A stretch of 62,781 nt of DNA, counting the filler, from Globobulimina sp. (Eukaryota): the NCBI GenBank assembly GCA_003354225.1. It is 31 parts of 31 records of this genome, joined end to end, with 100 filler letters (N's around TTAATTAATTAA, not from the genome) between each part and the next. Parts side by side here need not be neighbours in the genome. Positions count along the whole stretch, not along the records: positions 22,322 to 24,250 come from PIVH01010492.1; 30 more parts are not named here. The stretch is one strand, 5' to 3'. Both the position numbers and the translations under genes were made by a program. The notes under the pieces are model-generated. The model had not been told where the DNA came from. It ran no database searches and worked only from the letters and a program-made list of their open reading frames with translations. Shown one piece after another: positions 2,952 through 58,727 of the stretch (positions are counted from its first letter, which is position 1; each line of letters opens with the position of its first letter).

Positions 2952-3119
2952 TCATACATCTGGCAAAATCACCGGAATAATTATTAAAGAGAACCCACAA
3001 ACAAGCCATAAAATCATAAAAAGATCATGCATAAATGTTGGCTTCTCCCCATTCTCAGATTTAGAAGATTTTACCGATAGTATCATAATAAATCCAAGTA
3101 CTATACTTGCTATTTCCAC
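2952..3119 (-). CDS. Small two-TM membrane protein (55 aa, MEIASIVLGFIMILSVKSSKSENGEKPTFMHDLFMILWLVCGFSLIIIPVILPDV)
   Basis: Read manually. The GTG start is the last triplet of the 26-nt repeat, and there are two hydrophobic segments. Confidence 0.6.
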   Translation of the reverse strand: MEIASIVLGFIMILSVKSSKSENGEKPTFMHDLFMILWLVCGFSLIIIPVILPDV

Positions 3120-3158
3120 TCTCTCCCCCTTGTGCTTTTAATAAATTCATTTGTCGCA

Positions 3159-3398
3159 TTAGTTATCTCTTATTATTTTGGCCATTTCAAGTTTTACATC
3201 AGAAATTACTCTATCTTGGTTTGACTTTAATTGTTCATATCTAATAGTCATATTTTGTATATCTTTCATTAGGTGATCTTTTGTTGTAGTTTTATCTTCA
3301 AGCAGTTTAGCTAGATCATTTTTGAAATAACCGCTTAAGTATTTCATCCTATCACATATTTCAAGCCATTCATAAAATAACGATTCTAATCCTTTCAC
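3159..3398 (-). CDS. Small hypothetical coiled-coil-like protein (79 aa)
   Basis: GTG start supplied by repeat copy 3396-3421. Confidence 0.65.
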   Translation of the reverse strand: MKGLESLFYEWLEICDRMKYLSGYFKNDLAKLLEDKTTTKDHLMKDIQNMTIRYEQLKSNQDRVISDVKLEMAKIIRDN

Positions 3399-3408
3399 TC
3401 TCTCCCCC

Positions 3409-3567
3409 TTATGCTTTTAATTTGAAAAACTTTTCAAAGGGGTCTCTATATACGGTAATAAAATCACCCCTGTCAGTTTCGAAACTTACATAATTATCGT
3501 TTATTCCGACTATTTTTATATTTTTATACCCTTCATAATCCCCGGTATCAAATATGTCTATACTCAT
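3409..3567 (-). CDS. Small hypothetical protein (52 aa, MSIDIFDTGDYEGYKNIKIVGIND...)
   Basis: The likely start is the ATG at 3567, at the end of the variant repeat. Its TAA stop lies inside the next repeat copy. Confidence 0.65.
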   Translation of the reverse strand: MSIDIFDTGDYEGYKNIKIVGINDNYVSFETDRGDFITVYRDPFEKFFKLKA

Positions 3568-3586
3568 CTCTCTCCCCATTGTGCTT

Positions 3587-3733
3587 TTAATAAATTTCTT
3601 TTTTATCATGATTAAAGCATTTACCGAGCCACATATTCCAGACACTGAAATACTTTTTCCCGTCTTCTATATACACTGATCGATAAGTTAACGGCAATAA
3701 TTGTTTTAGGCACCAGATTATTCCATTTTTCAT
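3587..3733 (-). CDS. Small hypothetical protein (48 aa, MKNGIIWCLKQLLPLTYRSVYIEDGKKYFSVWNMWLGKCFNHDKKEIY)
   Basis: Read manually. It has a GGGG RBS and its stop lies inside repeat 3565-3591. The KQLLPLTYR...VW.MW.G.C pattern recalls small phage hypothetical proteins (from memory, unverified). Confidence 0.6.
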   Translation of the reverse strand: MKNGIIWCLKQLLPLTYRSVYIEDGKKYFSVWNMWLGKCFNHDKKEIY

Positions 3734-3744
3734 TTTTAACCCCA

Positions 3745-3879
3745 TTATTTTTTAATTCCGTTAGGATACTTCATACACTTCCCATATATTTTTAGCCTTT
3801 CTTTGCAGTAGCTTTCGTCCGCTCTGAAGAGATCGCATATTATACACATTATCCCAGGACACCAACAATTTTCTTTCAC
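3745..3879 (-). CDS. Small Cys-rich protein (44 aa, MKENCWCPGIMCIICDLFRADESYCKERLKIYGKCMKYPNGIKK)
   Basis: GTG start supplied by repeat 3877-3902. Six Cys, including CxC and CxxC. Confidence 0.55.
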   Translation of the reverse strand: MKENCWCPGIMCIICDLFRADESYCKERLKIYGKCMKYPNGIKK

Positions 3880-4060
3880 TCTCTCCCCCTTGTGCTTTTA
3901 ATGGTGCCGGTCTTTCCCGGCTGTCAGGTTATTAAGTTGGCCCGTTCACCGTATTACCTCNNNNNNNNNNNNNNNNNNNNNNNNNNNNNNNNNNNNNNNN
4001 NNNNTTAATTAATTAANNNNNNNNNNNNNNNNNNNNNNNNNNNNNNNNNNNNNNNNNNNN

Positions 4061-22321: not shown

Positions 22322-23137
22322 AAGAATAAATCCTGTTTGTTGTATAAGAACAACCCAATGTGGAATAATAAACTAAATAAACTGTTCGAACTATTAACAA
22401 GAAATGAGGCGGCTATAATGATCCAAATATTGACCGAACACATTGGTCTGAATCATTATTACCATCGAAAAAATTATTCGAATGCAGCAGTCCTACGCCA
22501 AATAAATACAAGAGATCATTATAATGATATTATTTATAATAATAATGATACCAACGGGAATCTGGACAGTATTTTAAATATCCGTGGTATCCCGTTATTG
22601 GAACCCATAGATATTAATCCATTAAACCGTACCAATCACAACCATCACATCCCATCAGCCATTGACGACGTTTCGCCAATGGATATTGATGATGATGATG
22701 CAAAACTCAGCATCGAACCCAGCGCATCGCCTACACCAAATAATGATATAAATATGTCCGATGACTCAATCAACAAAGATCCCGAACGTGTCCATTCACC
22801 GTATTGTGATCATTGTAATCAACAAATCGAAGATCTCGATCACTTTTTATTTAAATGTCCTGAATATAGCTCAATGCGGTCCATATTTCGAGATAAATTT
22901 TATAAATTAGACGAGCGATTAAAAATAGAATCCAACCATTTTATAATTAGCATCATATTATTCCCATACCAAATTAAAGACCTATCAGTAAGCAAACAAT
23001 TATTAATTTGGAAATTATTAATTAAATACATAACGCAAACTAAACGGCTACGTATTAACTATGATCCAATTCCCCTAAATAACCCAAACCCTCAACAACT
23101 AACCACTAATACCAGAAAAAGAATGCGATTATTTTAG
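22322..23137 (+). mobile_element. Non-LTR retrotransposon ORF2 C-terminus (post-RNase H region with CCHC zinc knuckle), 5' partial
   Basis: LTRNEAAIMIQILTEHIGLN...SPYCDHCNQQIEDLDHFLFKCPEY...IILFP...LIKYITQTKRL. Confidence 0.85.
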
Positions 23138-23550
23138 ATAGGATACCCAACACCAAACCAATATTGCTCTCATCCCTCATCATATGTTCTATATCACCAA
23201 CCAATGTTTGAGTAAATTTGGTAACAAACTCGCCAAGGTGACATATAGAAATAAGCATAGAAACAAAAACTGGGAAAAAAACATTATAATAAAACAAATC
23301 AACAAAATTGGAAGATGAAGAAGTGAGTTACCCTCTGGTAACTCGATTCTATTTTCTGCTCTTCCCGGAGGGAAGAAGCATTACAAAGTGTGCTGTTTGA
23401 TAAAAACAGACTTAATGACCTTTTTAATTAAATCATTATTACCAAATTATTCCTACACAATATCGATCAGCACAATATATTAATATGGCACTATCTCCGC
23501 ACACAAAGTACAATCCTCAATATTAAATAAATTACGCATACCATTAACTG

Positions 23551-23932
23551 ACCCACAACGACCTTGCTCGCTTTGCTCGCCAGCCGTTGTGGGGACGCCA
23601 CCATTCATCGAGGAAAATAATAGCAATGTATAACCGAATTAAAATAACCCACAACGACGTCACTCGCTCCGCTCGTTAGCCGTTGTGGGGACGTAGCCAA
23701 CCATCAAACAAAAATAAACTTGATGCAAATTTTTTTAATTGAAAAACCCACAACGACGTCGCTCGCTTTGCTCGCTAGCCGTTGTGGGGACGATACCAAC
23801 CACCGATGACCTAAGCCAAAGACCAAAAACACCAAACAATCAAACTTACAAAACCAAATACGGACCAATAAATTCATACAAGACTAACCCACAACGACGT
23901 CGCTCGCTTTGCTCGCTAGCCGTTGTGGGGAC
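23551..23932 (-). repeat. Array of four 46-nt palindromic repeats (23551-23596, 23647-23692, 23746-23791, 23887-23932) with distinct 50-, 53- and 95-nt spacers
   Basis: Plus-strand consensus ACCCACAACGACGTCGCTCGCTTTGCTCGCTAGCCGTTGTGGGGAC. Copies 3 and 4 are identical, and the 9-bp IR CCCACAACG/CGTTGTGGG is invariant in all four. Confidence 0.93.
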
Positions 23933-24021
23933 ATCCGCCATAATCATCGTACTCAATTAAAAACGGACTTTATTAGAAACCGCCAATCTGAATAAATCAA
24001 ATAACAACAAAACACAACCTT

Positions 24022-24100
24022 CACGCTCGCTCCGCTCGCTATCCATTCACCACGCTCACTGCGCTCGCTATATACTTACCACGCTCGCTACGCTCGCTAT
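24022..24100 (-). repeat. Three tandem 29-nt-period copies of CACGCTC(G/A)CTNCGCTCGCTAT
   Basis: Copies start at 24022, 24051 and 24080 and share the hairpin core of the 46-nt repeats. Confidence 0.88.
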
Positions 24101-24808
24101 CTTAACCACTGTGAGTCCTAAGACCAACTACCAACAACCTGAATAGTATCTAATCTTTCAATCAATCAATTTATTCTTTATTTATTCTCTATGGGTCGAT
24201 AATAGCGAGTTACTCGCTAGAAGACTGTCTTTTTAGTCGTTGATTTTGACNNNNNNNNNNNNNNNNNNNNNNNNNNNNNNNNNNNNNNNNNNNNTTAATT
24301 AATTAANNNNNNNNNNNNNNNNNNNNNNNNNNNNNNNNNNNNNNNNNNNNAGAAAAAGTTTAATGTAATCTTAATCGGATTATATTCCTACGCCTTAATG
24401 TAAATCTGACGGTGTGCATGTTAATAGGGACAACGCCTTTAAACGTTTCATATCGTCCCAAATATACACTAGAGTTCAGTTGAAATATTGTACAAAACAC
24501 TTTCACACAAAGACTGCTTTCACATTCAATTCAAAAATTAACAAAAAAATGGATGAATGAGATTCAAAAATGCACAAATCGTAACATTGAGCAAACAAAA
24601 AAAATAAAGTACCAAAAAAATGAAAAAAAATATTTTCAATTTTATTTGTTTTATTATATATTAAATCATCCATCACACAAAAAATCAACCAAATTAACCA
24701 AAACAAAAAAAAATACACTTAAACTTACCGTTCCTTTCAATCAAACACAAAAAAATAATCAGAGCACAATAAACAAAGTTAATATAGATATAATTTTTGT
24801 GTTAATGT

Positions 24809-38550: not shown

Positions 38551-39194
38551 GATGTGGTTGGGTTGTTTGTTGGTGAAGGTGTGGGCGATGAAGTGGTTAA
38601 GGTTGGAAACGTTGATGGTTTTTTAGTTGGATTATGTGTTGGATTACGGGTTGGAAATGATGTTGGCGATGGGGTTGGAGGTGAAGTTGGTGATGGCGTT
38701 GGAGAAGGGGTTGGAGACGGTGTTGGTGATGGTGTTGGAGAAGGCGTCGGAGATGGTGTAGGCGATGGCGTTGGTGATGGAGTTGGAGACGGTGTTGGGG
38801 ATGGAGTGGGGAGTGGAGCGGATATACTCTGCAGGCACTTGGTATAGGCTCTGTTGGCACAGTTTGTGTCCCATGCAGTGAGGCAACAATATGAATCTAC
38901 ATTACATACTTGAGATTGACAAGTTGTGTCAACGCTGCAGCCGGTGGTTGTTTTGGCGACTGTGCACTCACAACATGTACATCGGATTCTGGCTCTATCG
39001 GCACATGTCTGATCCCAAGCAGTGGTGCAGCAGTATGAATCGGCTCCGCAGACGTTTGATTGACATGTACCATCAGTGCTGCAGCCTGTGGAAGATTTGG
39101 CTGTTCTACAGCTGCAACATTCTGAAGTGGTGGTGTGTATGTAATACGTTGAAATTAGTATGGTTGATAAAATGGTAGTGATAAGTAGTGACAT
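38551..39194 (-). CDS. Secreted protein with two Cys-rich repeats and a PTPS mucin-like stalk, 3' partial
   Basis: Signal peptide, two copies of CC.C...GCS.D.TCQS.VC..DSYCC.TAWD..CA.RA...C, and a (PSPT)n tract. Confidence 0.85.
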
Positions 39195-43389: not shown

Positions 43390-44481
43390 ATGGTGCCACT
43401 ATTTCAACTATTGCTCATTCTCCTCGTTCGAAGTACAAAATCCGTGAGTTGCAATGGATGTGCTTGCCTTACCCAATCAACAGGAAATACATGTTCTTTA
43501 AAGTTAAATAATATCTATTGCGCACATTGCGAAATAATTCAATGTAAAAACATTGTCCACATCACAGCTGTAACACATCAGATACATGTCATTCCAGCAC
43601 ATTGACATGTCAAACCGGTCTGCCATGTATAATCATATGCAGTGCAGCTAAGGCCTGCGAAAATAGAATAATTGACGGCTCCACGGCAACACATGTCACA
43701 GTATATTGCTCTCAACAGCGTGCTTGCAAAGGTGCCTCTATCCGTTGTGGCACTGGTGATTGTTTGCTGGACTGCACAGGTAACGCTACTGATATTTGTC
43801 TATGGTCACAAGTTAGTCGTAACATTGAAACTCGCAGCTTCCAATGTGTCGGCAACCAGTGTGATAAACTCAACCCTCCATCTGAAACAATTGAATTTTC
43901 TCCATCTCCAACTATGGCACCAACTTTATCGCCAACAATTGCTCCATCACAGTCACCTTCACAACCACCTACGAATGCACCTAGTTCAACACCTACAAAT
44001 GTTCCATCATTTGCTCCTACATTGCCACCTTCCATATCAACATATGCACCGAGCATTGCTCCATCTGGTTCACCATCACAACCACCCACAATATCACCAT
44101 CTGTAGCACCGAGCGATGCGCCTTCATTCTCGCCATCATTGGCTCCATCGGCCGCACCTACTTATTCACCGTCAGATGCACCGAGTGATGCTCCAAGCAT
44201 TGCGCCCAGCATTGCACCAACATATATTCCAACCATTGCTCCATCATTAGCGCCTAGTTTAACACCATCACATTCACCGTCACAACCACCTACAACCGCT
44301 CCTAGTTTAACACCTACCAATGTCCCCTCATTAACTCCGACATTCTCACCAAGTTTTACTCCAACAATAGCGCCCAGTTTAGCTCCTTCTGGATCACCAT
44401 CGCAACCACCTACTTTGGCACCTTCTGCGGCCCCTTCGTTAGCTCCAAGTTCTGCACCGAGTGCTGCGCCAACTGTCATTG
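43390..44481 (+). CDS. Secreted Cys-rich protein with a long PT/PS (APS/APT) repeat stalk, spliced, 3' partial
   Basis: Signal peptide MVPLFQLLLILLV, an intron between the 43390 and 43602 ORFs, C-x5-C modules, and a GTATGC donor at 44482. Confidence 0.75.
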
Positions 44482-58520: not shown

Positions 58521-58727
58521 ATGCAAGCAGTGATAGCTGCCGCTGCTATTATTTATGGTATGCAAGCAGTGATTGTAGTAACGTGAATCTTTGAATGTGT
58601 TTAATTAAATTATCTTTGAATGTGTTAATTCAATATAGGCTTAGTTCATCGAAAAAAAGTGATAGCTGCCGCTGCTATTTTATTATGGTATGCAAGCAGT
58701 GATAGCTGCCGCTAGCTGCTATTATTT
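58521..58727 (+). repeat. Irregular tandem repeats of ATGCAAGCAGTGATAGCTGCCGCTGCTATT
   Basis: Full or partial copies at about 58521, 58560, 58658 and 58690, running into the contig end. Confidence 0.75.

Follow-up and report, generated by a model that had tools for sequence, protein, structure and literature searches.

The palindromic repeats interspersed at positions 23551-23932 of the Globobulimina sp. DNA analyzed here are, as overlaps among related copies show, part of the 3'UTR of a non-LTR retrotransposon (LINE) with reverse transcriptase (RT), RNase H and a CCHC knuckle, within which they almost certainly constitute a tandem. The array is real, yet more ordinary than first proposed, and has no standing as a CRISPR-like system. 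Comparison of its copies shows that the 46-nt hairpin has been under purifying selection while the spacers drifted. The LINE copies, full-length as well as truncated, also have at their start the last 24-31 nt of their own 3' end in inverted form.

The window, by which we mean the whole stretch of 62,781 nt that was analyzed, is a chain of 31 contigs of ~1.9 kb each and not continuous DNA. The 30 linkers between them, each of 100 N with a six-frame stop, begin at 1931-2030 and recur every ~2029 nt, and the contigs on either side of a linker are not genomic neighbors. Because the window is built of N-linked contigs, the real context of the array is 22322-24250 only, namely a single contig (G000:C10492, locus L001) with linkers on both sides that carries the 3' part of a LINE on its plus strand. 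The sole long plus-strand ORF of this contig is the end of LINE ORF2, and neither an HUH nor a tyrosine-recombinase gene, considered as possible neighbors in the original prediction, is found on the contig; cas genes are equally absent from its 1.9 kb, which hold LINE ORF2 and UTR only.

This ORF, located at the contig start and ending at 23140, encodes the C-terminal ~266 aa of ORF2 including the stop codon (22337-23140, plus strand), the part lying 3' of RNase H according to the overlap chain and Pfam. It contains the codons of a C-terminal CCHC zinc knuckle (C-x2-C-x8-H-x4-C; 22805-22858, plus strand), with a Pfam zf-RVT match at E 0.007 that is below the cut-off. The upstream overlap chain L001-L006-L233, with 85-88% DNA identity, reaches RNase H and RT (in L233, RNase_H at E 8e-8 and RVT_1 at E 5e-31), the link from RT to 3'UTR being composed of overlaps between different copies and not of a single contig. 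A complete ORF2 of ~1450 aa with APE, RT and RNase H is present in relatives at 36-41% identity; the APE domain is seen in relatives at 38-41% identity (L095, P0005), the N-terminus of the window's own family not having been recovered. The element is a putative I-group-like LINE. Two word-indexed searches retrieved no protein homologues, and HMMER on the full library returned 77 relatives, mostly unnamed; named reference elements of LINE clades such as I, Ingi, Tad1, R1 or Loa did not come up in these searches. The library proteins closest to the RNase H region, P0001 and P0002, are labelled as bacterial-bin proteins and come from 1-2-kb contigs; they are probably eukaryotic LINE fragments mis-binned as bacterial.

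The 3'UTR that follows ORF2 is ~1.2 kb long. It contains a conserved block with two stem-loops on the sense strand (23308-23420, plus strand; RNA fold z -4.3), which is identical to L005 at 111/113 positions (98%), compared with 122/169 immediately upstream; this 113-nt block is a candidate RNA signal, without match in Rfam. The last 71 nt of the contig (24180-24250, plus strand) are the start of the 3'-terminal conserved region, 99% identical to L010, which in sister loci extends a further ~100 nt and is completed by a terminal stem-loop, poly(A) and a target-site duplication. Among 28 poly(A) ends, the target duplication lies inside the recovered locus in 7, six being of 10-13 nt and the seventh, found in a tandem copy, matching over 18 nt. 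The remaining 21 include many on short contigs, but also some short copies that plainly have no duplication. Truncation points do not cluster at the hairpins, with the exception of L049. The array is a constant piece of this LINE 3'UTR that is found at dispersed loci. With APE-type LINEs bearing RNase H the element shares the RT, RNase H and terminal CCHC knuckle of its ORF2 (with APE known from relatives), the poly(A) tail, variable 10-13-bp target-site duplications and 5'-truncated copies; it differs from them in the 3'UTR array of antisense-folding hairpins, in the extra 3' ORF of family B and in the 24-31-nt terminal inverted repeats.

The geometry originally reported for the array was verified on renewed measurement. 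Four 46-nt repeats, all of which form the hairpin on the minus strand, lie at 23551-23596 (repeat 1, with an AAA loop, a first-position type kept in all three copies), 23647-23692 (repeat 2, with a GGA loop and G-C changed to A-T at the foot of the core), 23746-23791 (repeat 3) and 23887-23932 (repeat 4, with the same sequence as repeat 3 and missing at the matching L003 site). The gaps between them measure 50, 53 and 95 nt, and the 9-bp inverted repeat is indeed invariant across the four in the alignment. Overlooked earlier were three additional short cores with GGA, GCA and GTA loops, arranged as a 29-nt tandem at 24022-24099 (minus strand) and identical in L004 at 70/76 positions. The core pattern is matched 8 times in the window, where 0.46 would be expected by chance and none of 100 shuffles reached 8, and 7 of these 8 sit in the 3'UTR of the array, each on the minus strand. 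Genome-wide, the exact stem pattern occurs at 9 sites on three contigs (4 in L001, 2 in L003 and 3 in L004), the reversed pattern used as control giving 0 sites. An assembly artefact is unlikely, for the three assembled copies differ among themselves. Contigs of run X1, which may be the source sample of the genome itself, match parts of the array with 0-4 differences and reveal one further array variant, no X1 piece spanning the whole array.

Other repeats of the window include four 34-nt direct repeats at 3119-3912 (spacings of 279, 170 and 311 nt), as well as 24-nt repeats, a 12-nt coding tandem and four copies of ~120 nt (58521-58713, 38602-38818, 43907-44458). A weak palindrome at 13916-13973 matches the hairpin model on both strands with E 0.11, probably by chance.

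Identity between copies of the array amounts to 89-100% in the repeats (93-100% over best-matching pairs) and 71-79% in the spacers, with 72% at third codon positions (106/147) and 96% in the terminal region. Repeats and spacers thus compared, 134/138 and 74/100 positions are identical, respectively (Fisher p 1e-7), the repeat pairs in this contrast being best matches; strict register gives 41/46 for repeat 2. Family B, the RT of which is 73% identical in DNA and 76% in protein, retains the hairpin at 36/42 nt with respect to repeat 1. Several changes keep the pairing: stem A-T to G-C, the substitution of G-C by A-T in copy 2 (already recognized in the original prediction together with its GGA loop, and verified here), tandem G.A to G-C/C-G in family B and changes involving G.T. 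Two-sided changes affect 4 pairs among 13 distinct rows, a count that was reached in 41 of 500 shuffles; such covariation, reflecting about four inherited events, is suggestive when taken alone. Selection very probably acts on the pairing of the antisense strand.

Under RNA parameters the antisense strand gives the better predicted fold in 18 of 18 long hairpins, and under DNA parameters it does so in 17 of 18. With RNA parameters it is favored by 2.1-8.9 kcal/mol and the entire hairpin with its inner core is recovered; with the DNA parameters of ViennaRNA it is ahead by just 0.4-2.2 kcal/mol, the hairpin of L012 prefers the sense strand and the inner core is often missed. Such predicted folds cannot discriminate between DNA and RNA for this hairpin. 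All 15 aligned loops are of the form GNA, AAA or GNNA with a C-G closing pair, and the open-loop pattern has 164 matches in the genome versus 71 with the reversed control; among the first 100 of these matches a hand count gave 75 GNA and 8 AAA, many of them being copies from a small number of families. In PMC3201870, GNA loops closed by C:G are described as very stable in DNA, and AAA and cGNNAg loops are cited among stable DNA mini-hairpins. The 15 loops are of the same C-G closed types as d(GNA), d(AAA) and d(cGNNAg) mini-hairpins; they differ from those known examples in lying inside a 42-46-nt stem with tandem G.A pairs, within a retroelement. The proposal that structure is selected in a strand-specific (antisense) manner, with loop types compatible with single-stranded DNA, is supported by these fold and alignment data.

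We lean toward the view that the hairpin acts as single-stranded DNA in the first-strand cDNA, which we regard as somewhat probable, because a LINE bearing RNase H has its antisense strand as single-stranded DNA during reverse transcription. The RNase H of the element would strip the RNA template from the cDNA, of which the 3'UTR would be the part synthesized first and made double-stranded last. There, a C-G-closed GNA, AAA or GNNA loop on tandem G.A or G-C pairs would form a very stable mini-hairpin, which may shield the exposed strand or bind a protein, be it ORF1p, ORF2p or some host factor that takes part in making the second strand. Alternatively, the hairpin at the same LINE site might act in antisense RNA, for instance by signalling the termination or processing of antisense read-through transcripts. 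A T-rich run follows each long hairpin on the antisense strand, and the RNA parameters, as seen above, yield the full hairpin with antisense ahead throughout; tandem G.A pairs are stable in RNA as well. RNA loops prefer GNRA or UNCG, however, and these are found in none of the 15 aligned hairpins, which have triloops and GTCA or GTTA tetraloops. Moreover, Rfam contains no family matching below E 1 (the sole match was a chance snoRNA at E 1.6, with 0 matches in 15 loci). We thus consider a function in antisense RNA unlikely. A ribozyme or known RNA was also dismissed, Rfam having given no match of note.

Across the genome, 18 long hairpins are present on 12 contigs, all in antisense orientation and all in LINE 3' regions with the exception of C880. 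On the latter (L108:1271-1447; G000:C880), a complete long hairpin and part of another lie directly beyond the stop of a host gene, adjoining a different small repeat, with no recognized LINE sequence there. Family B has two copies of the hairpin, one 9 nt 3' of the ORF2 stop and the other near the 3' end, and between them an extra ORF (ORF3) of ~240 aa (L073:195-581, L013:1-520, L110:255-617, L071). No Pfam family was found for this ORF3 or for the ORF1s, and BLAST detects no similarity between the ORF1 of family A and that of a distant family. Weak relatives of ORF3 at 23-24% occur on L122-L125, and Atlas matches to ORF3, all below 0.9, serve as leads only. An ORF sharing the contig with one of these relatives (L122:1938-2492, minus frame) resembles, we presume, bacterial glutamyl-tRNA reductase, so that contig is possibly a chimera or contamination. 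A third subfamily has the terminus in common, and its recovered stretches lack the hairpin. The hairpin is accessory in the two related families that carry it and not a core need, because the abundant, more distantly related LINE family has a ~190-nt 3'UTR without hairpin.

The short core, by comparison, is present in several unrelated repeat families of the genome. Further repeat families have hairpins with GNA loops (L017, L019, L021, L023, L028, L029, L030, L035, L037, L141, L142), some of them in tandem or beside microsatellites, and presumably resemble non-autonomous elements of Helentron type. Clusters of the short GNA core are also seen antisense and upstream of two-ORF elements (L184:985-1020, L192:245-295, L182, L191, L194, L208); judged by motifs, the second ORF of these elements resembles a Penelope-type RT, for which there is no Pfam match and Atlas matches are unnamed. 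Beyond this genome, the long-hairpin pattern has 0 exact matches among metagenome and viral contigs, and none of 113 pattern matches in metagenomes was confirmed as a related locus.

Bacterial REP sequences and the hairpins of IS200/IS605 are strand-specific, imperfect and thought to be active in single-stranded DNA. The terminal hairpins of Helitrons and Helentrons are alike in being strand-specific, imperfect and thought to act in single-stranded DNA; unlike all of these, the present element has no HUH gene or TC/CTRR ends and moves by target-primed reverse transcription. The unit could nevertheless be a captured rolling-circle end of Helitron or Helentron type that is carried by the LINE and still recognized by RepHel. 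Consistent with such an origin, the genome has Helitron genes (23 matches, 20 above cut-off), the short core and other GNA hairpins, often in tandem, recur in many other repeats, a long hairpin occurs once outside recognized LINE sequence and Helitron ends, as defined in PMC4344730, bear hairpins. The confinement of the long hairpins to LINE 3' regions, apart from C880, and their uniform antisense orientation speak against it, as does the lack of 5'-TC and 3'-CTRR ends around the unit. The hairpin was also found on none of the Helitron contigs examined, a weak test given that these are internal fragments without element ends. Capture of a rolling-circle end hence appears less likely still. The unit itself was rejected as a Helitron or Helentron terminus, the TC/TT start and the hairpin followed by CTRR not being seen around it and RepHel being located elsewhere in the genome.

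The repeat might also be a duplex palindromic site for protein binding, or a stem in sense RNA, with its inner fold being incidental. Its outer 9-bp stem pairs on either strand, sense RNA of the repeats folds at -16 to -26 kcal/mol, and the half-sites of a dimer can change in concert. The invariant G.T and the G.A/G-C core, on the other hand, pair on the antisense strand alone, the loop varies between 3 and 4 nt and one hairpin copy has a 7-nt insertion in its arm, which makes this reading quite improbable.

The array has 4 repeats in L001, 2 in L003 and 3 in L004. The claim of unrelated spacers holds within the window, where none of the 3 pairs is significant (p 0.08-0.61), and fails across the family, in which sister spacers align. 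Neighboring spacers are 81% alike in L003 and 74% in L004, and remain significantly so after trimming of the 12 repeat-adjacent nt (z 7.0 and 4.2, p 0.0005; 36 pairs in the trimmed test). Spacer 2 of the window (23693-23745) is a homologue of the spacers present in the tandem units of L003 and L004 (p 0.0005, trimmed), and spacer 1 (23597-23646) appears to be the decayed rest of a ~100-bp unit, aligning with sister spacers at p 0.002 when untrimmed and at p 0.09-0.14 after trimming. The 95-nt stretch (23792-23886) does not align to sister spacers in the trimmed test. It had been suggested to have lost one repeat, which was rejected: a covariance model with filters off matches nothing in it, and it corresponds to homologous unique UTR sequence in the sister copy L003. 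Because neighboring spacers in sister copies align end to end, the comparison shows that the array was built from a ~100-bp unit that was duplicated in tandem and in places lost again, leaving 2-4 repeats per copy. End-to-end alignment of spacers as duplicates of a minisatellite, which persists after trimming, is what the original prediction had named as evidence against itself, and it takes away the basis for a CRISPR-like, cassette or recombination-site array.

CRISPR arrays are alike in having palindromic repeats and spacers of similar size, but here the spacers are decayed duplicates, leader and cas context are lacking and the setting is a eukaryotic LINE UTR. The arrays of attC sites have an integrase and cassettes excised precisely between hairpins; an integron cassette array was rejected, since no integrase is found on the contig and the spacers are duplicates. 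There is next to no chance that spacers or cassettes are gained at these hairpins, for although repeat and spacer sizes fit and the hairpin pair of family B flanks its ~240-aa ORF, the spacers are paralogous and inherited in register from locus to locus, all 13 matches of the contig DNA are to LINE copies and neither a recombinase nor a cas-like ORF lies on the contig.

A second feature of these LINEs is the short inverted repeats at their two ends. In 8 loci with differing flanks (L126, L127, L128, L146, L148-L151), the start of the element is the reverse complement of the last 29-31 nt of family A. The 5' ends of this family consist of the inverted piece, followed by a common 5'UTR and then a long ORF1, the junction between piece and 5'UTR varying by a few bases among copies while both sides are conserved; these ORF1 ends and the RT part are on separate contigs, none of which joins them. 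Further copies with the inverted piece include L236 with L098 (G000:C31), L102, L010, L011, L045, L050 and L064. In the distant family, contig C31 has the inverted piece, ORF1, ORF2, 3'UTR, poly(A) and an 11-bp duplication all present, and L102 carries the piece on a copy truncated within ORF1. Five of the 7 copies with target duplication start with the inverted piece, at differing truncation points; of the other two, one has the first six bases of the piece (also found in the hairpin arm) and one has no piece. The inverted piece matches the 3' variant of each subfamily, including a private 1-nt deletion in L061, and in the distant family it corresponds to that family's own 24-nt end. The terminal inverted repeats are independent of the hairpin array, because the hairpin-less family has them too. 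Lone terminus pieces of 30-31 nt without poly(A) are also found (L129:1972-2004, L130:11-41, L152, L156, L157, L172), those of L129 and L130 with a local duplication of 8-10 nt. The base preceding the inverted piece is T in 31 of 32 rows, compared with 33% T in the flanks, rows with T-rich flanks having been removed beforehand and one row being a 3' end read backwards. In families A and C the end of the piece falls within or right next to the loop of the 3'-terminal RNA stem-loop, as it does in one of the two distant-family ends folded.

These junctions suggest priming at both target nicks, with the second nick priming on the RNA 3' end; alternatively, the inverted piece could stem from snap-back of the cDNA or from a repeat that is transcribed. 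In the case of priming at both nicks, the second nick would prime via its terminal T at the A with which the tail begins, and its product would be a 24-31-nt copy of the RNA 3' end, with synthesis halting in the loop of the stem-loop at that end. This piece would then be joined to the first-strand cDNA wherever the latter ended, and the short terminal inverted repeats would thus be newly made at each insertion. The hairpin arrays of two families, very stable as single-stranded DNA, would meanwhile protect or mark the cDNA for as long as it is exposed and lacks its second strand. Tentatively, at somewhat under even chances, we propose for this LINE lineage such a combination of two-ended target-primed reverse transcription with cDNA-guarding hairpin arrays in two families.

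L1 twin priming reportedly leaves inverted element sequence at the 5' junction. Inverted element sequence is likewise found at the 5' junctions formed by R2 snap-back, according to PMC11371274. In contrast to both, the inversion here always involves the extreme 3' terminus, breaks off close to where the terminal stem-loop has its loop and is frequently carried by full-length copies. Penelope-like elements, which PMC8557442 describes as having a GIY-YIG endonuclease, pseudo-LTRs and a hammerhead and as often carrying an inverted copy of the 3' end at the 5' junction, with examples of inverted 5' copies given in PMC3846280, share this last property with the present LINEs. Unlike them, our elements have a LINE-type RT with RNase H (APE in relatives), poly(A) and a short inverted piece of nearly fixed length. 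Assignment to the Penelope-like elements was rejected on the domains in the ORF2 of relatives and in L233, and Rfam detected no hammerhead in 15 loci. The DIRS group, characterized in PMC7192593 by a tyrosine recombinase, long inverted repeats and an internal complementary region, was also rejected, as Pfam on the full ORF2 gives APE, RT and RNase H only. LINEs are described as having no terminal repeats in PMC8557442. The 24-31-nt inverted repeats at the ends depart from this textbook trait and reduce the fit to the textbook LINE form, leaving the RT/APE assignment unaffected.

Our literature search, in which subscription journals and Repbase reports were thinly covered, found no LINEs with short terminal inverted repeats; within the same coverage it found no account of the hairpin motif in retrotransposons, and an earlier description of either is possible. 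Since signals in a 3'UTR usually function at the RNA level, a LINE cis-element under selection in the cDNA strand would represent an uncommon kind of regulation. How the second strand of LINEs starts and how their 5' junction is closed is still an open question according to PMC11371274. LINE 5' junctions with an inverted 3'-end copy of fixed length would be a direct sequence record of the junction-closing step, and this fixed-length piece offers a simple biochemical test of 5' junction closure. What is notable, once the array is understood as a tandem, is the apparent selection on a hairpin of DNA type in the cDNA strand, together with the short inverted repeats at the ends of these LINEs.
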